Source: Candidatus Hatepunaea meridiana (GTDB taxonomy: Bacteria; Electryoneota; AABM5-125-24; Hatepunaeales; Hatepunaeaceae). Taken from it: a stretch of DNA of 64,000 nt. Where the stretch lies: contig JAVCDD010000015.1 of NCBI GenBank assembly GCA_030765125.1, positions 2,939 to 66,938 of the forward strand, written 5' to 3'. Positions 43,225-58,052 of the stretch are shown here, piece by piece. The notes under the pieces were generated by a model. That model had not been told where the DNA came from, did not search any database, and was given only the letters and a program-made list of their open reading frames with translations. Positions within the stretch are counted from its first letter, which is position 1, and every line of letters starts with the position of its first letter. Made by a program: the position numbers and the translations under genes.

Positions 43225-44349
43225 TTGACAATAGGCGATTTAATCTACTGGTTAACCGTCTCAACCGGCATTATATGGGCAATTGTAACGATAGCTCTAT
43301 CTATCGGTTTAAGGTTGCTTAAAACTGTTAAGGACATTGCCAAGCCTACAGTGTCCGTTCTGATAGCAGCACGCAATGAAGAGGACAACATAGGCAACTG
43401 CCTGGAAGCGTTATCAAAACAGGACTATCCGGTTCACATGCGCGTTATTTTGGTTATTGATGACAACTCGACCGACGACACCTGGAAAATAGCTAACGGA
43501 TTCATCGGAAATATTCCAGGATTAAAGGTCATCAAGGCAGGTAAACCAGCGGGAAATATTGCGCCTAAGAAAAATGCTCTGATAACCGGCATCGACGCAA
43601 CAGCCGGAGACGTCATAATCACAACCGATGCGGATTGCACGCCTCCAACGGGCTGGATTTCCAGCATAGCCGGTCTATTTGAACCGGACGTGCAGGCTGT
43701 AGTCGGTTTTTCACCACTGAAAGGACACGGGATAGCCGGTGCGATCTCCCGCTTTGACAGTCTTGTAAACGCCGTGATCTCTGCCGGCGCGTTAGGTCTC
43801 GGAAAAGCAGCCAGCGCCGTCGGACGCAACTTCGCATATCGTCGCAGCGCCTATGACGACGCCGGAGGATTCGGTTCCAGCGCCATCGGAGCTTCCGGTG
43901 ATGACGATCTTCTGTTACAGCGAATCGCCTCAAAGGGTGGAAAGATAATCTTCGCAACCGATCCCAACAGCTTCGTTCCCGCCAGGGGCAAAGATACCAT
44001 CGTCGACTGGTTACGAATGAAACGACGCCATTTCTCGGCGGGAAAACGATACTCAACTGATCTAATCATTTTAGGAACTTTACTTTACCTCTTCAATCCA
44101 GTGCTGATTGCTTCAACTATTCTTTCAATAGTCGGTATTCTTGACCCTGTTGTAATCGCCGCTATCTGGGGCGCAAAATTATCCGTTGATGGTCTGGCGC
44201 TTTCACGAGGAGCGAGGCTCTTTCACACACAGAGCTGGATTATTCCCTGGATATTCGCTGAATTGATCTCACCGTTTCTTCTCACAGTATTAATTCCCGC
44301 ATCTCAAATAGGGAAAATTCGATGGAAGGGTAGAAAATTGAAAAAGTAA
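43225..44349 (+). CDS. family 2 glycosyltransferase (membrane-anchored)
   Basis: 374 aa (TTG start in track) with N-terminal TM helix, then GT2 motifs VSVLIAARNEEDNIGNCLEAL, VILVIDDNSTDDT and TDADC. Confidence 0.7.
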   Translation: MTIGDLIYWLTVSTGIIWAIVTIALSIGLRLLKTVKDIAKPTVSVLIAARNEEDNIGNCLEALSKQDYPVHMRVILVIDDNSTDDTWKIANGFIGNIPGLKVIKAGKPAGNIAPKKNALITGIDATAGDVIITTDADCTPPTGWISSIAGLFEPDVQAVVGFSPLKGHGIAGAISRFDSLVNAVISAGALGLGKAASAVGRNFAYRRSAYDDAGGFGSSAIGASGDDDLLLQRIASKGGKIIFATDPNSFVPARGKDTIVDWLRMKRRHFSAGKRYSTDLIILGTLLYLFNPVLIASTILSIVGILDPVVIAAIWGAKLSVDGLALSRGARLFHTQSWIIPWIFAELISPFLLTVLIPASQIGKIRWKGRKLKK

Positions 44350-44477
44350 GGGGAAATAAGGGGACAATATACCTGTTTTATAAATATTCTTTAAAATAAC
44401 GATAGTCCATAGAAAAGTAGGTATACTGTCCCCTTATTTCCTCATTCGATGTTTAAACTACTTTACGGGAACACCAT

Positions 44478-45731
44478 ATGGATCGTCCAATCGAAAAGAA
44501 ATTCTGGACAGCGAAGCGCATCGTTGGGATTACTCTCGTCTGTCTAATTATATTTGCGATTTTTTATATGCTGCTGTTCAGAGACAGCAGCTCACGTTTG
44601 AATGTCTCTGCCGAACGGTTGACCATCTCTGAAGTGGAACGCGGTGCATTTCAGGAATGGATTCCCATCAACGGTATCGTCGTACCGGTGAAATCCGTCT
44701 ATATAGACGCCATCGAAGGTGGTCGGGCAGAAGAGGTATTTGCAGAAGAAGGCAGTATGGTTGAAAGCAATCAACCGATTCTTAAGCTCTCCAATACCAA
44801 TCTCCTGCTGGACATTATGTACCGCGAAGCAGAACTCTACCGGCAGATAAACGATCTCCGCAATACCCGCCTCGCAATGGAGAAACACCGTCTTGAGCTT
44901 CGAAGCGCTCTGCTTGACCTCGATTATCAGCTATCCAAAGGTGAAAGAGACCTTAAACGGGTTAAAGTGCTGCAAAAGACAAAAATGATCTCCGATGAAG
45001 AGTTCAAAGAAGCACAGGATGAATATGATTACCTGTTTGACCGTCGTGAACTGACCCTCGAAACACACCATCAGGATTCACTTTTTCGCCAAGTTCAGAT
45101 TGCGGCGCTGGAAGCGTCAGTTGAACGGATGCAGTCAAATCTTGAAATAGTAAGAGGAAAGCTCGATAATCTGCTCATTCGAGCGCCGATAGCCGGACAG
45201 TTAACGTCGCTGGACGCCGAAGTCGGGCAGTTAAAAGCGCCCGGAATGCGGATTGGACAGATCGATGTATTAGAGAGTTTCATTTTACGCTGCGGGATCG
45301 ATGAACATTATATCGCCAGGATCACCAAGGGATTGATCGGCGAATTTAACTTCGCCAACAACGCATACCGCCTGCAGGTGATTAAAATTTATCCGGAGGT
45401 ACAGGAAGGTCGTTTTGAAGTGGATATGGGATTTATGGATAATGAACCGGAGGGCATCCGTCGCGGGCAGACATTTCGCATCCACCTCGAGCTTAGCGCT
45501 CCTGTTGAGGTGGTAATGCTGCCACGAGGGGGCTTCTACCAGAGTACAGGTGGTCGCTGGATTTTCGTCCTGGATGAGACGGGAGAATATGCTCTTAGGC
45601 GACCGATCCGGCTTGGTAGGCAAAACACGCAAATGTATGAAGTGCTCGACGGTCTGGAACCTGGCGAGCGAGTATTAACCTCATCCTACGAAAACTTTGG
45701 GGATGCAGATAAACTTGTTTTAAAGAAATAG
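44478..45731 (+). CDS. HlyD/MacA-type periplasmic adaptor (membrane fusion protein)
   Basis: 417 aa with N-terminal TM anchor, long coiled-coil region, and beta-barrel/lipoyl-like C-terminal part. It precedes the ABC ATPase and FtsX-type permease genes. Confidence 0.75.
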   Translation: MDRPIEKKFWTAKRIVGITLVCLIIFAIFYMLLFRDSSSRLNVSAERLTISEVERGAFQEWIPINGIVVPVKSVYIDAIEGGRAEEVFAEEGSMVESNQPILKLSNTNLLLDIMYREAELYRQINDLRNTRLAMEKHRLELRSALLDLDYQLSKGERDLKRVKVLQKTKMISDEEFKEAQDEYDYLFDRRELTLETHHQDSLFRQVQIAALEASVERMQSNLEIVRGKLDNLLIRAPIAGQLTSLDAEVGQLKAPGMRIGQIDVLESFILRCGIDEHYIARITKGLIGEFNFANNAYRLQVIKIYPEVQEGRFEVDMGFMDNEPEGIRRGQTFRIHLELSAPVEVVMLPRGGFYQSTGGRWIFVLDETGEYALRRPIRLGRQNTQMYEVLDGLEPGERVLTSSYENFGDADKLVLKK

Positions 45732-45817
45732 GAACACGGATGACGCGGATTCAACGGATTATCGCAGATTTTTTTATCTGCGATAATCCGCAAAAATCCG
45801 CGTCATCCGCGTTCCAA
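45731..45817. repeat. 87-bp near-perfect palindrome between the adaptor and ABC ATPase genes
   Basis: ggaacacggatgacgcggattcaacggattatcgcagat ttttttatctgcgataatccgcaaaaatccgcgtcatccgcgttcc. Confidence 0.55.
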
Positions 45818-45833
45818 TAAACTGGACTAACTA

Positions 45834-46499
45834 ATGATACAAACCAAAAACTTACAAAAAATCTACCGTACTGAAGAGGTGGAAACAGTCGCGCTGGACG
45901 AAATCAACCTCGAAATCAAAGAGGGTGAGTTCGTAGCGATTATGGGTCCTTCCGGCTGTGGGAAATCCACGCTGATGAATGTCCTGGGGCTTCTGGATAA
46001 TCCCACTAATGGACAATACTATTTCCTCGATCAAGAGGTCGCGCACTACTCGGAACGGCAACTGGCAAATCTGCGCAAGTCGAACATAGGGTTTGTATTC
46101 CAGAGCTTCAACCTGATCGACGAACTGACCATTTATGAAAACGTCGAATTGCCGCTTCTCTACCAGGGAGTATCATCTTCCGAGCGAAAAACAATGGTTT
46201 CAGAAGTGCTTGAAAAGATGGAGATCGCCCATCGAAAGAAACATTTTCCACAGCAGCTTTCAGGTGGCGAGCAGCAGCGTGCTGCAGTTGCTCGTGCGGT
46301 GGTAGGCAAACCAAAACTCATCCTCGCTGACGAACCCACCGGCAACCTCGACTCCGCTCGTGGTGAGGATGTGATGAAACAACTCGCCATGCTTCACTCG
46401 GAAGGCGCTGCTATTGTGATGGTCACTCACTCTGCAGCGTATGCTGAGTATAGCCAGCGTATTGTGCATCTGTTTGATGGTCATATCGTGACATCTTGA
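45834..46499 (+). CDS. ABC transporter ATP-binding protein (MacB/LolD-type)
   Basis: 221 aa with Walker [10 protein letters not shown], signature LSGGEQQR, Walker B LILADEPT. Confidence 0.85.
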
Positions 46500-46890
46500 C
46501 AGGTAGCGTAGGGCGGGATCTTATCCCGCCGAACTGCTTTTCTTGATAATGAAGATGTCCGGCAATACTTACTATTAATGATCCTGTTGAAATACTTCCC
46601 ATTTTGTCATTCCCGCGAAGGCGGGAATCCAGTTTAAAGAGTTTAAATACTTGAAAACTCTGGATTCCCGCCTTCGCGGGAATGACAAAGTGGGAAGCAA
46701 ATTCTGTAATAATTGACTTTTTCAACAGAATCATTAATCCGACCGTTTAATAGTTGACGTTGCGTTGCTGTCAGGTTACGCTTCGCTTGAAACCTGACGG
46801 GAACGTGTATATTATTAAGCGGTCTGGTTAATAATTTGAGTGATGTTAGACTTACGGCGGGTTAAGAACCCGCCCTACGTTTCAGGATTA
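46500..46890. repeat. composite nested palindromic region inside the efflux operon, containing a MITE-A copy at 46596..46697
   Basis: Outer inverted repeats cgtagggcgggatcttatcccgcc / ggcgggttaagaacccgccctacg; middle inverted repeats ttaatgatcctgttgaaa / tttttcaacagaatcattaa; inner MITE-A TIRs cttcccattttgtcattcccgcgaaggcgggaatccag. ORF 46423..46734 is spurious. Confidence 0.55.
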
Positions 46891-47036
46891 CCTTCAACAA
46901 GCAATTTATCAAGGTAAAACAGAGTTCAGAGTTCGGCATTTAGATTGTTTTTCCTTCTCGAACTAACGAAGTGAATTCTAAATCAAACACACTAAAGTGC
47001 GAACTCTGAACTCTATTTCTAAAGGAATATTAAATT

Positions 47037-49448
47037 ATGAACCTATCCGATGTAAAACTATCCTGGCGAACCCACAAGAAGAGTCCGCTCTTCGCGGTAA
47101 TCAACATACTTGGCTTGGCTGTGGCTATGGCTGCGGTTATCCTGATTGCTATTTACGTTCGTTATGAACTCAGCTATGATGCTCATTGGAAGAATGCCGA
47201 CAGAATTTACCGTGTGAATGGCGTCTGGACTACCGAAACCGGTGAAGAGATCACATCGCCAACCAGCGTGGGGGCTCTGAAAACCGCATTTGACCGAGAT
47301 ATTCCCGGCATTGAAGCAAGCGCGAGAATCGTTGACTTTGGCTGGCTTGAATATATATCCACAGAAAAAGCTTCCGCGCAAGTACTGATTCCAATGGCAG
47401 ATTCAACACTTTTAGATGTTTTTGATATTAAACTTCTTAAAGGTGATCCCAACACCGCATTGAGCGTCCACAATTCGGTTATCATAAACGAATCGTCAGC
47501 AAAGAAATTTTTCGGTGATGAGAACCCGATAGGAAAAAATTTAGAATTCAAAGCAGGTGCTTTCTATACTGTGACAGGCGTTTTCGAGGATATCTCTCAG
47601 CCGACACATCTAAAAAAGTATGCAATGTTTAACGGAATGCCGAGAATCTGGATCAATGACAATTGGGGATTTGAACTCCCTAATACGTATGTTATGCTCC
47701 AGGAAGGCGTAGATCCACATTCATTGCAACCGGCTTTGGATTCACTCGTTAAACCGCATGTTAAAAATCTTTCTTCTCAAGAAGGAAAGGTGTTCCGACT
47801 CGATCTCCAACCCGTTCGCGATATTCATCTCTATTCTACTCTATCAAATAGATTCTCATGCTGCGAAGAAAACACCACTCCAGCGATAGAAAACATCAGG
47901 TTGTTTTCCGGTGTCGGATTGCTCATTTTGATAATAGCTTGTTTAAATTTCATTAACCTTTCCTCTGCACGCAGTGCAGCCCGAGGAAAACAGGTTGGGA
48001 TTGCTAAGGTGGTTGGAGCCACGCGAGGCAGGCTATTCCGGAGCTTTATGCTCGAATCGATAGTTATGACAACCGGTTCAATGGTGATCGCCTTGTTGAT
48101 CTCAGGATTGCTATTGCCACATTTCATAAACATTTCCGGCATAAACCCGGATGTTGTTCAACTATTAGATTTAAGGTCCCTCGGGTTATTAGGATTATTT
48201 ACTGTTACTGTCGGCTTATTGGCGGGCTGTTATCCGGCTGCTTTTTTATCAGGTTTTCGTCCGGCTCAGGTTCTTAAGGGAACTCTTAGCCAGGGCTTAA
48301 AAGGATCTAAGCTGAGAGCTATATTAGTGATTTTCCAGTTTTCTATCTCGATAGCGCTTATAACCGGAATATTGATTGTCCATAATCAGATTAGTTACAT
48401 ATTCAATAAACCGCTCGGTTATAACATAGAAAACATCGTTATATTGGATCTGATGAGATTCCAGGGTGATTGGAGCGAGGAAGCTTTCATCAACGAATTA
48501 AGTTCATTGCCGGGAGTTGTTGATTTGACGACATCGCTCATGGTCCCGTTACTTGCAGGAGTCAATTGTTCAGGACCGGGTGAATGTTTTATACCTGGAT
48601 CCAACGATGAAATTTTAAATCCGCATTTTATGAAAGTAGGAACGAATTTTCCACAAATGTTTCAAATGAACTTGTTATCCGGCGCGTGGCTTGATAAAGA
48701 GATAAATTATGATAAAAATAACATCTCAATAATCATTAACCAGACAATGGCAAAGCGGTTGGGGTTCGATGATGCGGTTGACAAACAAATAAAGTCTCCT
48801 ATAAATGATGGAACTCGAACGTATACAATCATCGGTATAGTTGAGGATTTCCATTTAAAATCTCTACATTCGCGAATTGAACCAACCTTTTTAGTACCTA
48901 ATTGCAAAACCATTTGGAAGATACTGCTCAAGCTCGATCCAAACGACATACCCGGAACATTGACTGCTGTAGAGAGAATTTGGCTGGAATTAGGTCCACC
49001 GGTGGTTTTTAATTATCAATTTCTCGAAGATGTTTTTCGGCAGATTCATTCGGCTGACAAACGGTTTCAGGAAATTTTCATCAACTTAACTCTACTGGCG
49101 ATCTTCATTGCCTGTCTGGGTCTGTTCGCTTTGGCTGCTTACGCCGCAGAACGACGAACGAAGGAGATTGGCATCCGCAAAGCCCTGGGGGCATCAGTAT
49201 CCGGGATAGTAATGCTACTGTCGAAGGAATTCCTTATTCTAATAATGATCTCAAACGTGATAGCAACGCCGATAGCTTACTATTTTATGCAGCGTTGGTT
49301 GGAGAACTTTGCCTATAGGATTAGTATTGGAACAGGGGTTTTCCTGTTCGCAGCCATCCTAAGCGTACTGATAGCTTTACTCACCGTCAGTGCTCATGCT
49401 GTTCGAGCGGCAATGATGAAGCCAGTGGATTCGTTGAGACATGAATAA
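47037..49448 (+). CDS. ABC transporter permease, FtsX/MacB-type with two FtsX domains
   Basis: 803 aa; N-terminal TM + periplasmic MacB_PCD-like domains + FtsX 4-TM bundle, repeated twice. Confidence 0.8.
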   Translation: MNLSDVKLSWRTHKKSPLFAVINILGLAVAMAAVILIAIYVRYELSYDAHWKNADRIYRVNGVWTTETGEEITSPTSVGALKTAFDRDIPGIEASARIVDFGWLEYISTEKASAQVLIPMADSTLLDVFDIKLLKGDPNTALSVHNSVIINESSAKKFFGDENPIGKNLEFKAGAFYTVTGVFEDISQPTHLKKYAMFNGMPRIWINDNWGFELPNTYVMLQEGVDPHSLQPALDSLVKPHVKNLSSQEGKVFRLDLQPVRDIHLYSTLSNRFSCCEENTTPAIENIRLFSGVGLLILIIACLNFINLSSARSAARGKQVGIAKVVGATRGRLFRSFMLESIVMTTGSMVIALLISGLLLPHFINISGINPDVVQLLDLRSLGLLGLFTVTVGLLAGCYPAAFLSGFRPAQVLKGTLSQGLKGSKLRAILVIFQFSISIALITGILIVHNQISYIFNKPLGYNIENIVILDLMRFQGDWSEEAFINELSSLPGVVDLTTSLMVPLLAGVNCSGPGECFIPGSNDEILNPHFMKVGTNFPQMFQMNLLSGAWLDKEINYDKNNISIIINQTMAKRLGFDDAVDKQIKSPINDGTRTYTIIGIVEDFHLKSLHSRIEPTFLVPNCKTIWKILLKLDPNDIPGTLTAVERIWLELGPPVVFNYQFLEDVFRQIHSADKRFQEIFINLTLLAIFIACLGLFALAAYAAERRTKEIGIRKALGASVSGIVMLLSKEFLILIMISNVIATPIAYYFMQRWLENFAYRISIGTGVFLFAAILSVLIALLTVSAHAVRAAMMKPVDSLRHE

Positions 49449-51858
49449 AATGTATTTGACGGATCTCAAACTATCCTGGCGGACTCACAAGAAGAATCCG
49501 CTCTTCACGGCAGTCAACATACTTGGCTTGGCTGTGGCTATGGCTGCGGTTATCCTAATCACCATCTACGTTCGTTATGAACTCAGTTATGATGCACATT
49601 GGAAAAATGCAGACAGGATTTACCGTGTGAATGGCACCTGGATTACTGAAAGCGGTGGAGAGATCACATCGCCAACCAGCGTAGGGGCTCTGCAAACCGC
49701 ATTTGAACAAGACATTCCTGGAATCGAAGCAAGCGCGAGAATCATGGACTGGGGCTGGCTTACATCTATATCCTCAGAAAAAGCTTCAGCGCCGGTGTTG
49801 ATCCCAATGGCGGACTCAACTCTTTTCGATGTCTTTGATCTAAAGCTACTGAAAGGTGATCCCAACACTGCATTAAGCGACCCCTTCTCGGTTGTAATAA
49901 ACGAATCATCGGCAAAGAAGTTCTTCGGCGATGAAAATCCGATTGGAAAATATCTCGACACCGATGCAGATACTTTCTACACAGTAACAGGCGTATTCGA
50001 GGATATTTCCAAACCGACACACCTCAAAAAGTATAAGATGTTTATTGGGTTGCAAAGAAAATGGATCGATGATTTCTGGGGATTAGACGCCCAAAATACT
50101 TACATAGTGCTCCAGGAAGGCGTCGATCCATACGGTTTGCAACCCGCTTTGGATTCACTCGTTAAACCGCATGTTAAAGATATTTCTTCTAAAAAAGGAA
50201 AGGTGTTCCGGCTCGATCTTCAACCCCTTCGCGATATTCATCTCTATTCTACTCTATCAAATAGATTTTCATGCAGCGAAGAAAACACCACTCCAGCGAT
50301 AAAAAACATCAGGTTGTTTTCCGGTGTTGGTTTGCTGATTCTTATAATAGCCTGTCTAAATTTCATTAACCTTTCCTCTGCACGCAGTACAGCTCGAGGG
50401 AAACAGGTTGGGATTGCCAAGGTGGTTGGAGCCACGAGAGGCAGATTATTCCGGAGCTTTATGCTCGAATCGATAGTTATGACAACTATTTCAATGGTGA
50501 TTGCCTTGTTGATCTCAAGATTACTATTGCCGCATTTCATAAACATCTCCGGTATAAACCCGGATGTTGTTCAACTATTAGATTTTAGGTCCCTCGGATT
50601 ATTAGGGTTATTTACTGTTATTGTCGGCTTATTGGCGGGTTGTTATCCTGCCGCTTTTTTGTCGGGTTTTCGTCCGGCTCAGGTTCTTAAAGGCACTCTC
50701 AGCCTGGGTATGAGAGGATCGAAGTTGAGAGCAATATTGGTGATTTTCCAGTTTTCTATTTCGATAGCGCTTATAACCGGAATATTGATTGTCCATAATC
50801 AGATTACGTACATTTTCAACAAACCGTTGGGCTATGACATAGAAAATATTGTTCTAATGGATCTGATGAAATACGATGGTGATTGGAGCGAGGAAGCTTT
50901 CATTAACGAATTGAGTTCGTTGCCGGGAGTTGTCGATTTAACGACAGCGATCCATGTTCCGTTACTTCCGGGAGTCGGTTGCGCAGGATTAGGTAGATGT
51001 TTCATACCTGGCACGAATGATGAAAAGCTTGATCTGCATATGTTGCGGGTGGGAACGAGCTTTCCACAAATGTTTCAAATGAACTTGCTCGCCGGCAGAT
51101 GGTTTGATAAAGAGACAGATTTAAAAAAAGACGTCTCACTAATTATTAACCAGACGATGGCAAAGCAATTGGGGCTCGATGATCCGGTTGGCAAACAAAT
51201 AAAATCTCCCTATATGGATAAAATTCGAATGAGAACAATCATCGGTTTAGTCGAGGACTTTCATTTAAAATCATTACATTCACAAATCGAACCGACTTTT
51301 TTAAGTCTCGATGACGATGCCAACTGGAATATACTGCTCAAGCTCGATCCAAACGACATACCCGGAACATTGACTGCTGTTGAGAGAATTTGGCAGGAAT
51401 TGGCTCCACCGGTAGCTTTTAACTATCAGTTTCTCGAAGATGTTTATCAGAAGATTCACTTGCCTGACAAACGGTTTCAGGAAATTTTCATCAGCCTAAC
51501 TCTACTGGCGATCTTCATTGCCTGTCTGGGTCTGTTCGCTCTGGCAGCTTATGCTGCAGAACGTCGAACCAAGGAGATCGGCATCCGCAAAGCCCTGGGA
51601 GCATCAGTATCCGGGATAGTAATGCTGCTGTCAAAGGAATTCCTTATTCTAATAATGATCTCAAACGTGATAGCAGCGCCGGTAGCCTACTATTTTATGC
51701 AGCGTTGGTTGGAAAACTTTGCCTACAGAATAACCATCGAACCGGGAGTTTTCCTGTTGGCAGCGGTTTTAAGTTTGCTTATTGCTTTAGCAACTGTCAG
51801 TACTCAGGCGGTCCGAGCTGCAATGATGAAGCCAGTGGATTCGCTGCGATACGAGTAG
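49441..51858 (+). CDS. ABC transporter permease, FtsX/MacB-type (tandem paralog)
   Basis: 805 aa; collinear with, and about three-quarters identical to, the preceding permease; 8-nt overlap. Confidence 0.8.
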   Translation: MNKMYLTDLKLSWRTHKKNPLFTAVNILGLAVAMAAVILITIYVRYELSYDAHWKNADRIYRVNGTWITESGGEITSPTSVGALQTAFEQDIPGIEASARIMDWGWLTSISSEKASAPVLIPMADSTLFDVFDLKLLKGDPNTALSDPFSVVINESSAKKFFGDENPIGKYLDTDADTFYTVTGVFEDISKPTHLKKYKMFIGLQRKWIDDFWGLDAQNTYIVLQEGVDPYGLQPALDSLVKPHVKDISSKKGKVFRLDLQPLRDIHLYSTLSNRFSCSEENTTPAIKNIRLFSGVGLLILIIACLNFINLSSARSTARGKQVGIAKVVGATRGRLFRSFMLESIVMTTISMVIALLISRLLLPHFINISGINPDVVQLLDFRSLGLLGLFTVIVGLLAGCYPAAFLSGFRPAQVLKGTLSLGMRGSKLRAILVIFQFSISIALITGILIVHNQITYIFNKPLGYDIENIVLMDLMKYDGDWSEEAFINELSSLPGVVDLTTAIHVPLLPGVGCAGLGRCFIPGTNDEKLDLHMLRVGTSFPQMFQMNLLAGRWFDKETDLKKDVSLIINQTMAKQLGLDDPVGKQIKSPYMDKIRMRTIIGLVEDFHLKSLHSQIEPTFLSLDDDANWNILLKLDPNDIPGTLTAVERIWQELAPPVAFNYQFLEDVYQKIHLPDKRFQEIFISLTLLAIFIACLGLFALAAYAAERRTKEIGIRKALGASVSGIVMLLSKEFLILIMISNVIAAPVAYYFMQRWLENFAYRITIEPGVFLLAAVLSLLIALATVSTQAVRAAMMKPVDSLRYE

Positions 51859-52252
51859 CTCCGCTGAAACAGATATGAATTGAACCCATCTCCTCCTTAC
51901 TTCCGGTAATTTTACAACTATTTTACATTCTGAAGTAGCAAAAATTTCCATTTGCTGATTTGCTTTAATATATTTGGGTAAATCACGATCTGGTTTGTTA
52001 ACCGAATTTGAAGGAAAATCTCATGAGCAGAATTATAAAGAACTTCCGTCTATTGGCAATAATAGTCTGCATGGTTGCCGTTCTGTTGTTGCAGTTGCGC
52101 AGCAGTTACCTCATCGAATTCTGGTAGCAAGCCTTTTATAATAAGTGGAAATACGATTTTCGACATACTGAGCAACTGATCAGCGGTCTTATTCGTGATA
52201 AACTTACTGAAAAAAGAAACAACACTTAAGAGAATATAATCTGGAGGTTTCA

Positions 52253-52666
52253 ATGAAAAAAACAGTGTTTACAGTCCAAATCTGGTGTGCAGCGGCGTTT
52301 ATCGGGTCAATGCTGCTCTTATCATGTGCTTCTGTCAAGCAACAGAGTGATCCCATACCAGAACTGATTGAAGGAGTAAAAATGGTCATTATTACGACTA
52401 TTAACGCCAATCAGTTCTTCAAGGAAGATTACAAACAGGACGCACTGAGTTTTGTTATGCTTGAAAAAATGGATTATCTTATGATAGATCCATACACAAA
52501 GAAGATATTTGCTTTTACCTTGACACTCAAAGATGGGAAACTGGTGACTATTACTGCCACTACCACTGAGGAGTCCCCTGTAGGATCGGGAAAGAAGGTC
52601 ATTTATGATGTCAACTCTCAAAACTGGAGCGGTGATCTGGTCGAATTGTACCGTTCACAAAAGTAG
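52253..52666 (+). CDS. hypothetical lipoprotein
   Basis: 137 aa; lipobox LLLSCAS after a signal peptide. Confidence 0.5.
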   Translation: MKKTVFTVQIWCAAAFIGSMLLLSCASVKQQSDPIPELIEGVKMVIITTINANQFFKEDYKQDALSFVMLEKMDYLMIDPYTKKIFAFTLTLKDGKLVTITATTTEESPVGSGKKVIYDVNSQNWSGDLVELYRSQK

Positions 52667-52726
52667 ATCATACAAACTTGGTTTGACGGTAGTATTTTAC
52701 AGCCTCAGAGTGATTTAGATAGACCC

Positions 52727-53146
52727 TTGAATATAGAGGAGGTCCATGTGGATCGTCCGATCAAGAAGAAAATCTGGACGCCGAGGCGTATCGTTTGGAT
52801 CGCTCTTGCCTGTCTGGGGCTGTTCGCATTAGCAGCATGCGCCGCAGAACTGCGAACGAAGGAGATTGGCATCCGCAAAGCCCTGGGGGCATCAGTATCC
52901 GGAATAGTAATGCTGCTGTCAAAGGAATTCCTTATTCTAATAATGATCTCAAACGTTATAGCAGCGCCGATAGCTTATTATTTTATGCAGCGTTGGTTGG
53001 AGAATTTTGCCTATAGAATAACCATCGAACCGGGAGTCTTCCTGTTGGCAGCGGTTTTGAGTTTGTTAATCGCTTTAGCAACTGTCAGTACTCAGGCGGT
53101 CCGAGCGGCGATGATGAAGCCGGTTGATTCGCTGCGATACGAGTAG
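52727..53146 (+). pseudogene. chimeric deletion remnant: HlyD-adaptor N-terminus fused to C-terminal ~115 aa of an FtsX permease
   Basis: The first ~20 aa (VDRPIKKKIWTPRRIVWIAL) resemble the start of the 44478 adaptor (MDRPIEKKFWTAKRIVGITL). The rest is near-identical to the last 115 aa of the 49441..51858 permease. The ~160-bp 3' flank (53147..53310) duplicates 51859..52022. Confidence 0.55.
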
Positions 53147-53309
53147 CGCTGCTGAAACACAAATGAATTGAACCCATCTCCTCCTTACTTCCAGTAATTT
53201 TACAACTATTTTACATTCTGAAGTAGCAAAAATTTCCATTTGCTGATTTGCTTCTTATATTTGTATAAATCACAATCTGGTTCGTTAACCGAATTTGGAG
53301 AAAATTACC

Positions 53310-54980
53310 ATGTTACAGAAATTAAAAAGTCTGCGTTTACTACTTATCCTGATAATCTTCGCAGTCTTTATCATACTGTTTGGGATTAGCGATGTTCTGA
53401 ACAAATTCTATCAGGAACAAATGCGTCACATTCAGATTTCAGGTACCTTTAGGACGGAAACCTTAGTTCGAAAGTTATTTCTCTATCGAATCAGTGAACC
53501 AATAACCAAAATTGAAAAAACTCTTACTCAGCATGTTAAGACTGATATGAATGATGAGGAATTCATTGATTGGCTGAAAAATTATTCCAATGATGAATCT
53601 CTTATCGGTGCAGGTTTTGTCTGGCGAAGACTAACAGGTAAGATAGAAATCATATCTCTTTCTTTAAAAATAGACACAAAGACCAAGATATCTATAGAGG
53701 AATACATCCGGACTGTCTATAATCCGGAGTTTGTTCCTGCTTATCCTCCCTGGCGAAAGGCTCTGATTGATTCCCTCAAAGCAGAGATTAATCAGAATGT
53801 TGGCTTTACGCTCTTTCATAAAGATAATTTCCCGGATATCAAACCCCGAAGTAAGGCAATTGAGGCAGTTAATACAGTTTATGGTATAATATGGGATAGT
53901 GATTATTATCTCACTGATTACTTTGCCCCGCTGAAGAAGGAAATTGAAGATAATCCCTGGAATTTTGGTCTGATTTTCTTTACCATCTATAATAATACCA
54001 GAATAGAGGGTGATTATTCGGGAATGTTGCTTGTAGATGCTAATAATGATACTTTATTCAGTTGTGGTGGAATTCAACTGGAGCCTTATTTATTTCAGAA
54101 TCAGAAACAAATTGGTCCTTGGAAAACTAAAATAGACTGGTCCCCAGGCTGGGAGATGTATGCACAAGATCATCAGGCGTTGTCTTCAGTAATCGACTCA
54201 GACCTGTTAGCAAAATTCCGGAAGAGATTAAGACTATTGTTCCTTGTTGCTTTAATAATTTTGTTCGCTGTATTGTGGGTACAAATTAAAGCCCGTGAGA
54301 AGCAGCGAAAAATCATAGCTCACATTTCTCACGAGCTTAGAACTCCAGTCTCAAAAGTCAAGCTTTTCGCCGAAACTCTACGGAATGATCGGACAGTTTC
54401 AGAAGAGAAAGAAGATGAATATCTCGATAAAATTCTGCATGCATCTGACCATCTTTCAGTGTTGATAGACAATACGCTTAACCTGGCACGTCTCGATGCA
54501 GGAAAATTCAAGGTCACACTATCCCCCCAGAATTTCGGAGACTGGTTGGCAACATTTTACAAATCTCACTCTGGTTTCTTAACGGATGCCGGCTTTGAGA
54601 GCACACTCAAGGTGGAGCCCGATCTGCAGGATGTTACCTTTGACACTGAAGCAATGGAGCTAGCGTTGCGAAACATATTAGACAATGCTGTGAAGTATTC
54701 CGAACGAAATAAAGAGATTGAAATCATCGCCGAAAGAAAAGATACAAAGAGAGTAGTTTTATCAGTAAAAGATCGCGGGACAGGCATACCTGAAAAGAAG
54801 AGAAAAGCGATTTTCAAGAGGTTTTACCGAATTAAACAGAAGGATCGTGAACCTGTGGGTGGCGTTGGATTAGGCTTAAGCATTGTTAAAGAAATTGTCA
54901 AAGCTCATCGCGGCAAGGTCTGGTGTGAAGGACGAGAGGGGGGCGGAAACAACTTTAAGATTGAACTGCCGGTTGCCTGA
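53310..54980 (+). CDS. sensor histidine kinase
   Basis: H-box ISHELRTPVSKV, N-box LRNILDNAVKYS, G-boxes DRGTGIP and GGVGLGLSIV; two N-terminal TM segments. Track ORF starts at the TTG at 53295. Confidence 0.85.
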   Translation: MLQKLKSLRLLLILIIFAVFIILFGISDVLNKFYQEQMRHIQISGTFRTETLVRKLFLYRISEPITKIEKTLTQHVKTDMNDEEFIDWLKNYSNDESLIGAGFVWRRLTGKIEIISLSLKIDTKTKISIEEYIRTVYNPEFVPAYPPWRKALIDSLKAEINQNVGFTLFHKDNFPDIKPRSKAIEAVNTVYGIIWDSDYYLTDYFAPLKKEIEDNPWNFGLIFFTIYNNTRIEGDYSGMLLVDANNDTLFSCGGIQLEPYLFQNQKQIGPWKTKIDWSPGWEMYAQDHQALSSVIDSDLLAKFRKRLRLLFLVALIILFAVLWVQIKAREKQRKIIAHISHELRTPVSKVKLFAETLRNDRTVSEEKEDEYLDKILHASDHLSVLIDNTLNLARLDAGKFKVTLSPQNFGDWLATFYKSHSGFLTDAGFESTLKVEPDLQDVTFDTEAMELALRNILDNAVKYSERNKEIEIIAERKDTKRVVLSVKDRGTGIPEKKRKAIFKRFYRIKQKDREPVGGVGLGLSIVKEIVKAHRGKVWCEGREGGGNNFKIELPVA

Positions 54981-55675
54981 TGAATGAAACGATACTCATA
55001 GTTGAAGACGATCAGGAGATACGCCAGGGACTCCGGGATAATCTTGAGTTCGAGGGTTATCGAGTCGAGGATGCCTGGAACTTCTCGGATGCAGAGGAGA
55101 AGTGGCGGGCAGCAAAACCTTCGCTCGTTATTTTGGATCTGATGTTACCGGGGCGAAGCGGTTATCAACTGCTTAAAGAGATGAGAGCATCCGGATTGGA
55201 AACGCCGGTGATAATCCTTTCAGCACGAGGTGAGTTGTGGGACAAGGTTAAGGGATTCAGGCTCGGATGTGATGACTATGTGGTTAAACCTTTCAGTATC
55301 ATCGAGCTTCTCGCTCGCATAAAAGCCTTGCTGAAAAGGTCAATCCCACCGGATGAGCCAAAAGAGATAATCCGTTTTGCCAATCTAAAACTGGATATTC
55401 CAAACAGAAGATTGACAACGAGTGATAAGGTAAATGAACTTGCATTAAAGGAGTTTGAGCTGCTTTTTTACTTCCTCAATAATCCGGGCAGGGTGATTCC
55501 CAGAAAAGAGCTGCTTGCTGAAGTGTGGAATTCATCACCGAAAATCGTAACCCGCACGGTAGATGTTTACGTCTCTAATCTTCGTAAAAAGCTCACCGGG
55601 TCCGGTTACGAAATCCAGGCGGTTTACAAGGTTGGATATAGGTTTAGAGTGATGGATGAGGAGATTCAACATTAA
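54980..55675 (+). CDS. OmpR/PhoB-family response regulator
   Basis: 231 aa. Receiver with canonical acid pocket (IVEDDQ), phospho-acceptor LVILDLMLPG, conserved VVKPF Lys, and winged-helix C-terminus TRTVDVYVSNLRKKL. Confidence 0.9.
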   Translation: MNETILIVEDDQEIRQGLRDNLEFEGYRVEDAWNFSDAEEKWRAAKPSLVILDLMLPGRSGYQLLKEMRASGLETPVIILSARGELWDKVKGFRLGCDDYVVKPFSIIELLARIKALLKRSIPPDEPKEIIRFANLKLDIPNRRLTTSDKVNELALKEFELLFYFLNNPGRVIPRKELLAEVWNSSPKIVTRTVDVYVSNLRKKLTGSGYEIQAVYKVGYRFRVMDEEIQH

Positions 55676-55691
55676 TGTATTATTTAATTCT

Positions 55692-56393
55692 TCAGCGAGA
55701 AGGAATATCGATTACAGGTTGTTCCCATTTATATCCTTTCTGATAAACCGTTATAATACATTTCCCGATTGCTTGCCATTTCGAACGGATACGATGGATG
55801 TGCATATCAACCGTCCGTGTGGTGACATCGACCTCCTCCCCCCAGATCTCGTCAAGGATACGGTAACGGCGTACAACCTCACCCTCACTTCGAATTAACA
55901 ACGCGAGGATCATAAATTCGCTCTTGGTTAGATTTATTTCACTCCCCTCTAACACTGCCTGTTGAGTCTGTAAATCCAACGTAAAACCACCAGATTTGAG
56001 CAGCCTTGGAGCATTCTGATCGGAACCGACACGACGCAGTATCGCTTTTGCTCTACCAAACAGTTCATGCAGTGAAAAAGGGATCGCTACGAAATCGTCA
56101 CATCCCTCATTAAAGGCTCTAATCTTTTCTCTCTCCGCATCCTGAGCCGACAGTATAATCACTGGTGTTGTTCGAGCTTCCTGACGAAGTTTCCTCAGAA
56201 TGTGCCATCCATCAACTCCGGGAACCATCAGGTTAAGCACTATCAGATCAATATGATTGTGCAGTGCATATTCCAGTCCGTTTTGTCCATCGCGGAACCG
56301 AATGATCTGAAAACCTTCGCTCTCAAAACCATCTTGAAGCATCCGTCCGATGACAGGATCAAATTCGATTATTAGAATCGAAGTCATAATCAA
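55692..56393 (-). CDS. atypical OmpR-family response regulator (phospho-acceptor Asp replaced by Asn, conserved Lys replaced by Ile)
   Basis: 233 aa. Aligned to the 54980 regulator, LIVLNLMVPG stands against LVILDLMLPG, and VAIPF against VVKPF. The winged helix TRTVDMHIHRIRSKW is intact. Confidence 0.8.
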   Translation of the reverse strand: MIMTSILIIEFDPVIGRMLQDGFESEGFQIIRFRDGQNGLEYALHNHIDLIVLNLMVPGVDGWHILRKLRQEARTTPVIILSAQDAEREKIRAFNEGCDDFVAIPFSLHELFGRAKAILRRVGSDQNAPRLLKSGGFTLDLQTQQAVLEGSEINLTKSEFMILALLIRSEGEVVRRYRILDEIWGEEVDVTTRTVDMHIHRIRSKWQAIGKCIITVYQKGYKWEQPVIDIPSR

Positions 56394-58052
56394 CTAAACC
56401 GTCAACTCGATTCTAAAGATACTCCCGCCATCAGGATTTGGTCTCATATTAAGACGTCCTCTGTTTGCCTTGACTGCACATTTTGCCTGATAGAGTCCAA
56501 GCCCAATTCCTGCTCTGAATCTATGCTCATCATCAGGGATGATATAGAAAGGTTTGAACACTCTTCGTCTGAATCGCTTTTGAATACCGATCCCATTGTC
56601 GATGACTTCGATTGTTATTCTGTCATCTTGATGATAGCCTTTAACAACGACATTTTTTCCCTCATCCTCGGATGAATATTTTACCGCATTGCCTATGAGA
56701 TTATCAAGCGCGGTTCTCATATTTCCAACATTCCACCTCCCGCTCCAACCGGATTCGGGTAGATCCACAGTGTATGTAAATCCCTTCGCTTCAACATTAG
56801 TACGCCATCTTTCAGCAGCTTGTCGAAGCTCAACGCATAGGTCGGCATCTTCCTTCAACGCGGTTTGCGACTGTCTTTTCATCACGGCAAGTGTTGTCCT
56901 CGTAGCTCTCTGCAGATTGTCGGATTCCACCTGAAGTTGTTCCATAATTTCCTCTTCCTGTTGTGGAGTGTCAAAGCGTTTATCTTTTATCGATTCGATC
57001 AATATCCCGATTCGGGAAACCGGCATCTTCATAATATAACCATAATGAGCCATCAGAACCCGCTGATGTTTGAAAGCACGGAAGTAGATAAAGACCAGAG
57101 ACGCCAAAACAATTACAATAATGCCGATGCCTGTTAGGTTGATCAAGAAAAACTTCTTAACGTAGTCTCGGGCTCTTATTACCCGATTGTAAAATTTCCG
57201 TTCTCCGAAAATAGTTATATGTCTGAGTTGAGGCGCCATGGTTATGTGAGTTTCACTACGTATGGATTCAAGATAAGGGTCATCAGGATTTGCCATTAAT
57301 TTATCTCCCCACCAATATATCGTGTCATTTTCAGACACAGATCCGAATCCGAAGTCATGATTTTTCCTGTTTTCCGGAAAAGAATATAAGCGAAAATGCA
57401 GCCAGTTGATTTGAACACTGTCCCATACAGCAGGTAGTCTCTCAATAAACCAGTCTGGATTAAAAACCATTCCCACCGCGGTATCACCGAATGTTATACC
57501 ATCCGACGAGGGAAACAGAAGTAATCCACCAAAAGAATCCGTTGGAGAATACAATTTCAACAACCTTCCATACCCTCCGAATTTCTCAGATATAACTTCT
57601 GAGAGCTTGCCATCGACCCACTTTTCGATATAGGGCATAAGAGAAGTATCCAACTCTTGATCAGTAAAATTTTCAATACCGATTTGACCGATTACACCTG
57701 AGCTGTCAAATAGAAATGTTGAGTAAATCTCAGCTCTTTCAGAGATACTGACTGCAAAGTCATAACTGCTTGGTAAAAAAGTATTTTCGCGAGAGTTCTT
57801 TATTACGAACCTTGCAAGTGGCTGATATAGACCTCGGTACGCGGTGATCAGACCTGAGCGAAAGAACAGCTTCTGACTGGTGTTCGATAGCCTCGCCAAA
57901 CCGGGACCTCCCTCAAGAATAAACAGTTTAATCCTCTCGTATCTATGGATCCCTTTCAACGGAAAACAGACCGTCCAAAGCAGCACAACGACTCCAATTG
58001 CAACTGCAATGATGCGCCAATTTAAGAATCTCCACCTCATTTCATCCTCCAA
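56394..58052 (-). CDS. sensor histidine kinase (non-canonical H-box)
   Basis: 552 aa with TM segments, HATPase_c N/G boxes LDNLIGNAVKYS, DNGIGI, GIGLGLYQAK. The H-region reads LMAHYGYIMKMPVSRI rather than H-E-L-R-T-P. Immediately upstream of the atypical regulator. Confidence 0.75.
   Translation of the reverse strand: MEDEMRWRFLNWRIIAVAIGVVVLLWTVCFPLKGIHRYERIKLFILEGGPGLARLSNTSQKLFFRSGLITAYRGLYQPLARFVIKNSRENTFLPSSYDFAVSISERAEIYSTFLFDSSGVIGQIGIENFTDQELDTSLMPYIEKWVDGKLSEVISEKFGGYGRLLKLYSPTDSFGGLLLFPSSDGITFGDTAVGMVFNPDWFIERLPAVWDSVQINWLHFRLYSFPENRKNHDFGFGSVSENDTIYWWGDKLMANPDDPYLESIRSETHITMAPQLRHITIFGERKFYNRVIRARDYVKKFFLINLTGIGIIVIVLASLVFIYFRAFKHQRVLMAHYGYIMKMPVSRIGILIESIKDKRFDTPQQEEEIMEQLQVESDNLQRATRTTLAVMKRQSQTALKEDADLCVELRQAAERWRTNVEAKGFTYTVDLPESGWSGRWNVGNMRTALDNLIGNAVKYSSEDEGKNVVVKGYHQDDRITIEVIDNGIGIQKRFRRRVFKPFYIIPDDEHRFRAGIGLGLYQAKCAVKANRGRLNMRPNPDGGSIFRIELTV

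Follow-up and report, generated by a model that had tools for sequence, protein, structure and literature searches.

Organization of the locus

The window, that is, the whole 64-kb stretch of DNA that was analysed, belongs to Candidatus Hatepunaea meridiana, an uncultured lineage of the FCB group from Ace Lake (PMC9324843). The host is an uncultured Antarctic-lake bacterium, and the only paper naming this organism makes no mention of efflux, MacB, pseudogenes or two-component systems. The region of interest begins with an operon (44478–51858), hereafter pump A, in which an adaptor, an ABC ATPase and FtsX/MacB_PCD permeases are encoded together (Pfam), as in MacAB-like pumps. The ATPase is a separate protein of 221 aa and is not fused to a four-helix permease, as it would be in the MacB architecture. 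The two permease genes, X1 and X2, are the product of an exact one-gene tandem duplication, with direct repeats spaced 2410–2413 nt apart and a full-length dS of 0.47. No ORF between 40 and 60 kb was recognized as an OEP/TolC outer-membrane partner gene or as a mobile-element gene. Downstream of pump A lie two copies of a flanking sequence (F1 and F2), each of which runs up to an ATG in equivalent register (52023 and 53310), and between them the 5' stump of a kinase gene, an intact gene (orf137) and a chimeric ORF. An intact two-component system, HK_B and RR_B, follows F2 (Table 1).

Table 1. Features of the pump-sensor locus, in window coordinates
Feature	Position	Strand	Remarks
HlyD-family adaptor gene, intact (pump A)	44478..45731	+	Pfam HlyD_3, E = 9e-07
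ABC ATPase, intact (pump A)	45834..46499	+	Pfam ABC_tran, E = 2.7e-34
FtsX permease X1, 803 aa	47037..49448	+	Pfam, two MacB_PCD + FtsX halves; tandem paralogue of X2
FtsX permease X2, 805 aa	49441..51858	+	Pfam; last 113 codons are repeat copy R1
Flank F1	51859..52022	+	Permease 3' UTR (51859–51908) and putative two-component-system promoter region (51909–52022)
Stump of a second histidine kinase, hkA'	52023..52204	+	61 codons; TAG at 52125–52127; homology ends at ~52200 (junction J1)
orf137, lipoprotein-like, intact	52253..52666	+	Homologues 54–71% identical
Chimera, probable pump B remnant	52748..53146	+	22 HlyD-like codons (52748–52813) in frame with the last 113 codons of an FtsX permease, X3 (52806–53146)
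Flank F2	53147..53309	+	X3 3' UTR (53147–53196) and putative promoter
Histidine kinase HK_B, intact, 556 aa	53310..54980	+	Pfam HisKA + HATPase_c
OmpR-family response regulator RR_B, intact	54980..55675	+	Pfam Response_reg + Trans_reg_C; 88% identical to the regulator of L004

The same junctions are present in contigs of this species from three other public assemblies, the samples of which may not be independent of the source of the window. One ENA contig (L001, 99.5% identity) spans both repeat copies, a second (L002, 100%) runs from the first flank to the chimera, and a JGI contig (L019, 99.2%) extends from X2 to orf137.

The chimeric ORF

An earlier note on this DNA had described an HlyD-like start fused to a permease end in an ORF running from 52727 to 53146. 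The fusion is indeed in frame, but translation is better placed at GTG 52748 than at TTG 52727, since this GTG is the in-frame equivalent of the hlyD ATG and is preceded, at a spacing of 5 nt, by GGAGG, a strong ribosome-binding site. The resulting chimera has 132 codons. The adaptor gene of pump A served as the reference for its 5' part, and the first 22 codons of this gene match 52748–52813. In the alignment that the earlier note had called for, positions 52744–52815 and 44474–44545 were 81% identical over 72 nt without gaps (BLASTN within the window, E = 1.6e-14), far above chance, and the adaptor homology breaks off 4 nt before the hlyD start. The likeness of the remainder to the end of the permease was borne out in the same way: 52806–53146 and 51518–51858 were 91.2% identical at the nucleotide level and 97% at the amino-acid level, with 4 of the 113 residues differing between the chimera and X2. 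Significant nucleotide identity was found for every pair of segments that had been named. The two homologies overlap at 52806–52815 in TTGCCTGTCT, a junction microhomology, so that the fusion point has only ~10 nt common to both parents, far below assembler k-mer size. The adaptor start directly adjoins the permease end, colinear and without a change of orientation, but nothing of the interior is left; in pump A, 6,982 nt separate the corresponding points.

The chimera matches Pfam PF02687 (FtsX) over residues 17–123 with 42.4 bits (cut-off 25.5), and it has the C-terminal FtsX domain, consisting of three transmembrane helices and a cytoplasmic coupling segment. Pfam gave no MacB_PCD match, and the N-terminal transmembrane helix and the periplasmic core domain are missing; the chimera is a permease fragment and not a member of the family in the functional sense. 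Pfam gave no HlyD match either. The coiled-coil hairpin, lipoyl and beta-barrel domains of adaptors are lacking, and what is left of the adaptor, 22 codons, amounts to its cytoplasmic tail and one half of the membrane anchor. The fusion recreates a 19-residue hydrophobic helix, preceded by an N-terminus with 6 Lys/Arg, a charge that would be expected to turn the permease helices round relative to their native orientation. Outside the species, no small protein with an HlyD-like N-terminus homologous to the chimera was found among 5.8 billion proteins. The other matches of ~140 aa in this search were plain C-terminal permease fragments, and we rejected a stand-alone "mini-FtsX" family of that size because they begin inside normal permease sequence and lack an adaptor-like N-terminus. 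We suggest that 52748–53146 should be annotated as a pseudogene fragment (adaptor::permease fusion) and not as an "FtsX-like permease".

Divergence and past selection

Comparison of X2 with the permease part of the remnant (X3) gave a dS of 0.385 and a dN of 0.020, hence a dN/dS of 0.05, although such a low ratio would also arise if the chimera were still under selection. The remnant's own branch carries 14 effectively synonymous and 3 non-synonymous changes, and under neutrality so few non-synonymous changes (3 or fewer) would be expected with a probability of 1.4e-6; the X2 branch is skewed in the same way (10 and 1, respectively). Since the remnant differs from X2 almost only at synonymous sites, it functioned as a gene through most of its existence, and its truncation is recent. 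A fragment without function from the outset could not show such a pattern, which speaks for strong purifying selection on the permease part after its split from X2. The adaptor stub and hlyD have a dS of 0.62, calculated from 6 synonymous differences and compatible with the value for the permease part. Two of the three remnant-specific replacements are unusual and adjoin the junction, and may be regarded as signs of relaxed constraint. In one, Tyr is replaced with Cys at a position occupied by F or Y in 99 of 105 homologues, and in the other, Arg is replaced with Leu where 97 of the 105 have Q, R or K.

X2 and X3 are the closest permease pair, with a dS of 0.385 versus 0.57–1.0 to the permeases of relatives. 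This closeness, together with the single permease gene of the relative L020, indicates that the amplification arose within the lineage. The divergence of HK_B between the window and the L004 organism (0.40) is about equal to the dS between X2 and X3. A simple tandem duplication with a period of 1288 nt was rejected, since a different sequence follows the second unit and the permease copy had been subject to selection. Gene conversion between paralogues was observed at 50169–50328 and could distort divergence estimates.

The duplicated flank and its putative promoter

F2 is about 91% identical to F1, with 14 mismatches and one indel in 164 nt; the duplication of ~160 bp reported in the earlier note is therefore real, and its description as almost exact was slightly generous. 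Permease tail and flank together make up two repeats of ~508 nt. The flank is not simply the 3' flank of the operon. Its last ~115 nt correspond to a putative two-component-system promoter, which L004, a relative lacking a pump at this place, also has in front of the orthologous kinase gene. This orthologue of HK_B is 84% identical and has the same ATG and promoter, with no pump upstream. The promoter region is also conserved upstream of HK_A, the kinase of the relative L048. Each flank copy contains a 7-4-7 direct repeat, TTTTACA-ACTA-TTTTACA, at 51910–51927 in F1 and 53198–53215 in F2, and a sigma-70-like TTTCCA/TATATT pair at 51945–51974 and 53233–53261, respectively. The repeat is invariant in the four promoters (F1, F2, L048 and L004) of two paralogous OmpR-type systems, and the 27-mer ATTTTACAACTATTTTACATTCTGAAG is likewise invariant in all four. 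In the 64-kb window, the box was found in the two flank copies only and does not precede the pump operon; the orf137 loci of relatives lack it as well. There was no terminator-like site on the + strand between 51859 and 53310, and no RNA family of Rfam matched 51700–53500. The F2 promoter is of the A type almost up to the ATG, so an extra recombination or conversion step is needed under the two-module origin proposed below.

Pho-box-type sites of OmpR/PhoB-family regulators consist of two 7-bp direct repeats with 4 bp between them. The box at this locus has the same 7-4-7 layout, ~18–35 nt upstream of the -35-like hexamer, with direct repeats about one helical turn apart, a -35/-10-like pair downstream and conservation in orthologous promoters. 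The Pho box of Escherichia coli is unrelated in sequence to TTTTACA-ACTA-TTTTACA, and the RR_B site is putative. TTTTACA-N4-TTTTACA within the invariant 27-mer may be considered a candidate operator for an uncharacterised family of OmpR-type regulators.

The kinase stump and orf137

The two flank copies had been thought to drive different genes, a small hydrophobic peptide at 52023 and the histidine kinase at 53310. A promoter-like flank does precede both positions, but 52023 is not the start of a separate gene: the ORF 52023–52127 corresponds to the first 34 codons of a truncated kinase A. An intact counterpart is provided by a metagenome contig (L048) with the order permease, flank and intact 597-aa histidine kinase, the first 61 codons of which match 52023–52204 with 85.7% nucleotide identity. 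A CAG codon of this kinase is TAG in the window, and the TAG is also found in L001, L002 and L019. We suggest that 52023–52127 should be annotated as a pseudogene fragment (kinase 5' stump) and not as a small peptide gene. The possibility that this ORF is a diverged N-terminus of HK_B was rejected, the similarity (~42% nucleotide identity by eye) being unconvincing and L048 assigning the stump to another kinase, HK_A. The two kinases, A and B, are paralogous: their sensor domains are 28–38% identical and their cores 70–92%. A scan of GTDB species representatives with the kinase, in which the species is not represented, returned only an unrelated 25% match, and a 42% identical kinase homologue of a more distant relative (L060) lies directly downstream of an RND efflux operon.

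The homologues of orf137 are always located between a response-regulator gene and a gene for a protein of ~1045 aa, with a conserved hairpin motif upstream. In the window, neither these neighbours nor the hairpin motif are present around orf137. In relatives, no pump was found downstream of its homologues, and the partner is always the ~1045-aa protein, which is missing from the entire window. As orf137 is without its native upstream motif and downstream partner, its place between the modules of the proposed origin calls for further breakpoints. The locus has at least two scars, with orf137 stranded between them and torn from its usual neighbours, a feature absent from the earlier note.

Origin of the locus

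Taking as established the homologies and their junctions, the past selection, the intact kinase A of a relative and the conservation of the promoter, we consider it probable that two paralogous pump-sensor modules, arranged head to tail, have decayed reciprocally and that the chimera is the deletion remnant of a second pump, pump B. In each ancestral module, an HlyD-ABC-FtsX efflux operon would have preceded a two-component system of its own (a kinase and an OmpR-type regulator). In module A the pump would have survived and the sensor been lost, apart from the promoter and a 61-codon 5' fragment of kinase A interrupted by a nonsense codon at 52125; in module B the sensor (53310–55675) would have survived and the pump been lost. 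Pump B would once have been a complete operon, as judged from two short ends only, of 66 nt and 341 nt. A deletion of ~5–7 kb, with its ends at short GCCTGTCT-like microhomologies, two in number, in sequence that codes for transmembrane segments, would have fused adaptor codon 22 in frame with codon ~692 of the final permease gene, giving rise to the chimera. These deletions may have been slippage or illegitimate-recombination events, with the chimera and the kinase stump as presumably non-functional by-products. RR_B may bind the identical 7-4-7 box in both promoter copies, a prediction made from the sequence; in that case, its own operon would be regulated through F2, and the stump and orf137 (and read-through) through F1. 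The locus would be a case of step-by-step pruning of duplicated pump-sensor modules in an uncultured FCB-group lineage, in which permease amplification was followed by microhomology deletions and conversion-like exchange between paralogues. As an end state, pump A would be paired with sensor B, and an orphaned box-bearing promoter would stand before the stranded orf137. The scars are ordinary genome decay, and no general concept is changed by them.

The large deletion within a duplicated macA-ABC-FtsX operon that was proposed in the earlier note thus agrees with the colinear ends, their common orientation, their similar dS (0.39 and 0.62) and the past selection, but the second scar, the kinase stump, had been missed and a related genome with an intact second operon, the proposed comparison, was found neither among GTDB representatives and JGI metagenomes nor in the set of 5.8 billion proteins. 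The closest relatives have one permease gene (L020) or the order permease-flank-kinase (L048). Since L004 has no pump upstream of HK_B, the adjacency of pump B and its two-component system was either derived in the lineage of the window or lost in L004.

The absence of a pump in L004 would also fit a piecemeal assembly of X3 and its flank, the adaptor 5' fragment, the kinase stump and orf137, without a full second HlyD-ABC-FtsX operon ever having been present. Permease genes do amplify alone here (the X1/X2 pair and the single copy of L020), and at least four novel junctions occur within 1.3 kb (~52200, the orf137 flanks, 52806–52815 and about -10 of the HK_B ATG). The joins would have come from several illegitimate or homologous recombinations, such as a crossover between the paralogous A and B promoters. 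We nevertheless regard this patchwork as unlikely, because the two pieces of the chimera, adaptor stub and permease tail, follow the order of the operon, share one orientation and reading frame, and have diverged from pump A to a similar extent at synonymous sites. X3 long remained functional, and for its function a permease requires an ATPase and, as a rule, an adaptor; a single internal deletion is the simplest route to an adaptor-start::permease-end fusion. We are still less inclined to see the second module as a xenologue (dS ~0.4) from a related strain or species that was integrated beside the resident module and then trimmed. The X2–X3 dS (0.385) does approximate the divergence of HK_B from that of L004 (0.40), and the breakpoints coincide with homology edges (the promoter, and 4 nt before the hlyD start). 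However, none of the permeases recovered from relatives comes as near to X3 as X2 does, and no mobile-element genes accompany the locus in the 40–60 kb interval. The present data do not separate transfer from duplication, and in either case the chimera is a deletion remnant.

Several features of the chimera could suggest a new small membrane protein, a three-helix FtsX fragment binding the ABC ATPase or the kinase and modulating the pump or signalling: the frame is open behind a strong GGAGG 5 nt before the GTG, the in-frame fusion restores a 19-residue hydrophobic helix, dN/dS is 0.05, the FtsX match exceeds the Pfam threshold, and the ORF is kept in a second population with one amino-acid difference. 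We consider a function of this kind very improbable, since an in-frame junction is expected by chance in 1 of 3 cases and the synonymous bias is fully explained by the history before the deletion, the X2 branch being alike (10:1). The lack of homologous proteins outside the species (5.8 billion proteins), the two unusual replacements near the junction and the conflict between the positive-inside rule and the native orientation also count against it. It is just as doubtful that the deletion products are otherwise not inert, with F1 co-opted to put orf137 under RR_B and the chimera translated and tuning or interfering with the pump A ATPase or the kinase; if true, this would represent the birth of a regulatory gene from a deletion scar. 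An assembly or binning artefact, a contig wrongly joined at the repeats, is scarcely credible. The window does come from a metagenome-assembled genome, and public contigs of the species tend to break near repeats, but the same junctions are found in two ENA assemblies (L001 and L002) and one JGI assembly (L019). With 9% divergence between the repeat copies and 19% in the adaptor stub, these are genuine paralogous sequences and not duplicated reads, and the stretch common to both parents at the fusion point is too short (~10 nt) for such a join.

Comparison with known systems

MacAB-type tripartite ABC efflux pumps combine an HlyD-family adaptor with an ABC ATPase and an FtsX/MacB-type permease bearing a periplasmic core domain (PMC8277102). 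Pump A resembles them in its HlyD-family adaptor, its ABC ATPase and its MacB_PCD and FtsX permeases, and the two parts of the chimera, its first 22 codons and its closing FtsX helices, represent the start of such an adaptor gene and the end of such a permease. Pump A differs in having its ATPase in a separate gene and permeases of ~800 aa with a double MacB_PCD/FtsX arrangement, in two tandem copies, and no gene for an outer-membrane factor was found adjoining its operon. The chimera itself is without the periplasmic domain, the first helix and all else needed for transport. In BceAB-BceRS systems, an FtsX-family ABC transporter is coupled both genetically and in its function to a two-component system. 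Here, too, an FtsX-type ABC transporter operon adjoins genes for a kinase and an OmpR-type regulator, and the same adjacency is seen in L048 and, with an RND pump, in the more distant L060. However, HK_A and HK_B have an extracytoplasmic sensor domain of ~280 residues between two helices, the first hydrophobic segment and the helix ahead of HisKA, and are not sensor-less intramembrane kinases; in addition, an adaptor is present, and the pump lies upstream of the sensor genes without a regulator box.

The chimera is similar to pseudogenes arising by microhomology-mediated (RecA-independent) deletion, both in the internal deletion between short GCCTGTCT-like direct repeats that would account for its in-frame fusion and in the synonymous-biased divergence that records its former function. 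The locus also resembles cases of reciprocal loss after duplication, as complementary losses would leave one working pump and one working sensor. It differs from them in that the sensors were already old paralogues (28–38% identity between sensor domains), and the outcome would be a rewired pair and not a simple return to a single copy.

Structure of the locus and the chimeric ORF

The DNA studied comes from Candidatus Hatepunaea meridiana (phylum Ca. Electryoneota, FCB group), and the histidine kinase at 53310-54980 is identical to a protein encoded by a MAG of this species. The species description (PMC9324843) is from Ace Lake, Antarctica, where it was found in anoxic water. An adaptor start, a permease tail and a duplicated flank had been noted between pump A (the intact HlyD-ABC-FtsX operon) and the histidine kinase HK_B, and all three are present in the sequence. 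A repeat finder aligned 52744-52815 with 44474-44545 (81% over 72 nt; BLASTN E = 1.6e-14 for the adaptor-like match within the window) and 52806-53105 with 51518-51817 (91%). Pairwise alignments showed that the permease-tail repeat runs on past the stop codon and through the whole flank to the ATG; the ATGs at the ends of flank copies F1 and F2 (52023 and 53310) are in register, and the copies differ at 14 positions and by one indel. The adaptor and permease homologies share TTGCCTGTCT at 52806-52815, and the permease frame is preserved across the fusion point. The ORF had been placed from 52727, a TTG that is merely the first possible start; the hlyD ATG corresponds to GTG 52748, which has GGAGG five bases before it. 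The same junctions recur in contigs of this species from three further public metagenome assemblies, whose samples may not be independent of the window's source (L001, 99.5% identical and covering both repeat copies; L002, 100%; L019, 99.2%). An assembly artefact is very unlikely.

Features of the pump and sensor region, in window coordinates
Feature	Position	Strand
Glycosyltransferase	43225-44349	+
HlyD-family adaptor (hlyD)	44478-45731	+
ABC ATPase	45834-46499	+
Permease X1, double MacB_PCD/FtsX, ~800 aa	47037-49448	+
Permease X2, architecture as X1	49441-51858	+
Flank F1, 164 nt	51859-52022	+
34-codon ORF	52023-52127	+
orf137	52253-52666	+
Chimeric ORF	52748-53146	+
Flank F2, 163 nt	53147-53309	+
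Histidine kinase HK_B	53310-54980	+
OmpR-type regulator RR_B	54980-55675	+

A second kinase and the identity of the flank

Two informative relatives, L048 and L020, came out of a JGI metagenome scan with X2 as query. In L048 (about 85% nucleotide identity), a permease 3' end and the flank are followed by an intact 597-aa histidine kinase that begins MSRMLKHFRLLAIVVCVVAILLLQLRSSYLIEFWQQAFYDKW; the first 61 codons of this kinase are 85.7% identical in nucleotides to 52023-52204. Codon 35 from 52023 is CAG in L048 and TAG in the window, L001, L002 and L019, and the kinase homology ends at ~52200, ~50 nt ahead of orf137. Thus, what the earlier note took for a gene encoding a small hydrophobic peptide is the stump left by a second kinase gene, HK_A. 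HK_A and HK_B are paralogues that align over their full length (sensor domain 28-38%, kinase core 70-92% identical). Across the final ~270 nt of the kinase core, HK_A of L048 (1908-2575) and HK_B of L004 are 92% identical, whereas both are only 73-80% identical to HK_B of the window, suggesting that L048 and L004 represent one sister lineage in which paralogous kinase cores were homogenised by conversion.

The closest orthologue of HK_B, P0002 on L004 (84% identical), has as neighbours a gene for a giant surface protein and a small ORF on the opposite strand, but no pump. Nevertheless, ~115 nt ahead of its ATG align to the window flank, including an invariant ATTTTACAACTATTTTACATTCTGAAG. The flank therefore consists of ~50 nt of permease 3' UTR followed by a two-component-system promoter. 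Within this promoter is a direct repeat of 7-4-7 layout (TTTTACA-ACTA-TTTTACA), which occurs only twice in the window, once in each flank copy, with a TTTCCA/TATATT pair downstream; we take this layout to be that expected of an OmpR/PhoB-type regulator, making the repeat a candidate site. F2 resembles the HK_A promoter (F1 and L048) as far as ~10 nt short of the ATG, and from there the HK_B promoter (L004), a mosaic that suggests crossover or conversion between paralogous promoters. The flank of L048 has an ~80-nt insertion of AT-rich AAATACGAA-like repeats (~625-745) between the -10-like region and the ribosome-binding site of HK_A.

The stranded orf137

Homologues of orf137 (54-71% identical), on Calditrichota-like and unclassified metagenome contigs, are always found 3' of a different kinase/regulator pair and 5' of a gene for a ~1045-aa protein. 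A conserved hairpin motif, CACAAGCAGGGACGCTTGTGCTACTG, lies upstream of them; in all relatives, the hairpin-containing motif CACA(A/G)GCAGGGACGC(T/C)TGTGCTACTG stands before both genes (L008, ~9960 and ~10570; L011, L014, L017 and L018), ~40 nt before the start codon and sometimes tandemly repeated, and may be a shared regulatory element. In the window, both motif and ~1045-aa partner are missing, and orf137 retains ~50 nt of unrelated sequence upstream and is separated from the adaptor stub by 81 nt; it has therefore been removed from its normal surroundings. The orphan promoter F1 now stands ahead of it, with no terminator-like site seen between the two.

Past selection and amplification of the permease genes

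Over their last 113 codons, X2 and the permease remnant in the chimera (X3) differ at 31 nucleotides and just four residues (dS 0.385, dN 0.020, dN/dS 0.05). Polarised with X1 as the outgroup, the remnant branch has 17 changes, effectively 14 synonymous and three non-synonymous, and the X2 branch 10 and one, respectively. Had the remnant drifted neutrally after parting from X2, non-synonymous changes should make up about three quarters of the total, and the probability of three or fewer is 1.4e-6. The remnant therefore belonged to a selected gene for nearly all its separate history and was truncated recently. Of its three replacements, two are unusual and lie within 11 residues of the junction: a Cys at an aromatic position (F or Y in 99/105 homologues) and a Leu where 97/105 have Q, R or K. 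An N-terminus containing six Lys/Arg precedes the hybrid first helix (residues 15-33), so that, by the positive-inside rule, the remaining helices would be flipped relative to the native permease. We read the chimera as a young pseudogene. Its adaptor stub differs from hlyD by six synonymous and seven non-synonymous changes, with a dS (0.62) statistically compatible with the duplication age of the permease remnant.

X1 and X2 form an exact one-gene tandem duplication (47037-51858, period 2410-2413 nt; full-length dS 0.47), the X2 ATG overlapping the X1 stop by 8 nt. In L020 (83.6% nucleotide identity), one permease gene stands alone, with X1-type sequence upstream and an X2-type flank downstream, and X2 and X3 are the closest permease pair (dS 0.385, versus 0.57-0.77 to L020 and 0.93-1.02 to L048); the amplification of permease genes is therefore specific to the lineage of the window. 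Positions 50169-50328 of X2 have 30-31 clustered mismatches with L001 (3189-3348) and L019, elsewhere >99.9% identical; here, X2 is 93% like X1 in the window and 83% in the other strains. This looks like an interparalogue gene-conversion tract, with a paralogue mix-up in one assembly as the alternative. The ATPase-X1 spacer (46500-47036) is unusually long (537 nt), with nested long inverted repeats, including one pair with 38-nt arms (97% complementary, containing GTCATTCCCGCGAAGGCGGGAATC) and another with 25-nt arms 323 nt apart. Together with 24-28-nt hairpins on both sides of hlyD (44352-44441, 45728-45818), these look like REP- or MITE-like elements. An inverted repeat at 46917-47018 is related to a ~27-nt GTTTAGAGTTCACGCTTCAGCGTGTTTA-like unit present in three tandem copies upstream of the single permease gene of L020 (1-100).

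Origin of the locus

The simplest reading is of two tandem modules, each a pump followed by its own sensor. Module A would have kept its pump and lost nearly all of HK_A and its regulator, and module B would have kept HK_B and its regulator and lost ~7 kb of its pump (6,982 nt on the assumption of colinearity with pump A). This deletion would have occurred between GCCTGTCT-like microhomologies, one in the adaptor membrane-anchor codons and the other in the last permease, within a transmembrane helix. The large deletion in a duplicate macA-ABC-FtsX operon proposed in the earlier note is partly supported, by the junctions and the past selection on the permease tail, but no genome with an intact pump B was found among GTDB representatives, JGI metagenomes and a 5.8-billion-protein set, so the complete second operon is deduced only. 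We consider it probable that the chimera is the remnant of such an operon after reciprocal loss in the two modules.

A patchwork origin, without there ever having been a full second operon, is unlikely; the missing pump upstream of HK_B in the L004 lineage speaks for it, but the long selection on the tail speaks against it. It is improbable that the second module is xenologous rather than duplicated; no permease recovered from relatives is as close to X3 as X2 is. We give little credence to a functional neo-gene; the open frame of the chimera speaks for it, and its potentially inverted topology against it. An assembly artefact is scarcely credible; the junctions recur in other assemblies. Under the favoured reading of reciprocal loss, the position of orf137 requires additional breakpoints. 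The scars are a textbook outcome of microhomology-mediated deletion and reciprocal loss after duplication, and what is new is limited to an example of this known process in a poorly known phylum. The additions to the earlier reading are a second scar, a promoter identity for the flank, and orf137 as a stranded gene.

Present working and relation to known systems

Pump A is intact, and system B (HK_B and RR_B) is the only sensor left at the locus. Since the box is identical in both promoter copies, RR_B should act on F1 and F2. F2 would provide autoregulation of system B; from F1, transcription would cover the kinase stump and orf137, perhaps also the chimera, and read through into the kinase operon. 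A search of the window found no 7-4-7 box upstream of the pump operon.

Pump A resembles MacAB in its adaptor, ABC ATPase and MacB_PCD/FtsX permease, but differs from MacB in its separate ATPase and double-length permeases; no TolC-type gene was seen among the ORFs of 40-60 kb. The pump-sensor adjacency recalls Bce-type systems; however, HK_A and HK_B have large extracytoplasmic sensor domains and therefore do not belong to this type. On L060 (4208-12489), a 42% identical kinase homologue and its regulator lie directly behind an OEP-MFP-RND efflux operon, indicating that pump-then-sensor adjacency recurs in the HK_B family across pump classes. A second two-component system (55692-58052, - strand), convergent with system B, begins 17 nt past the RR_B stop codon; its regulator (233 aa) is 32% identical to RR_B and its kinase (552 aa) 26% identical to HK_B.
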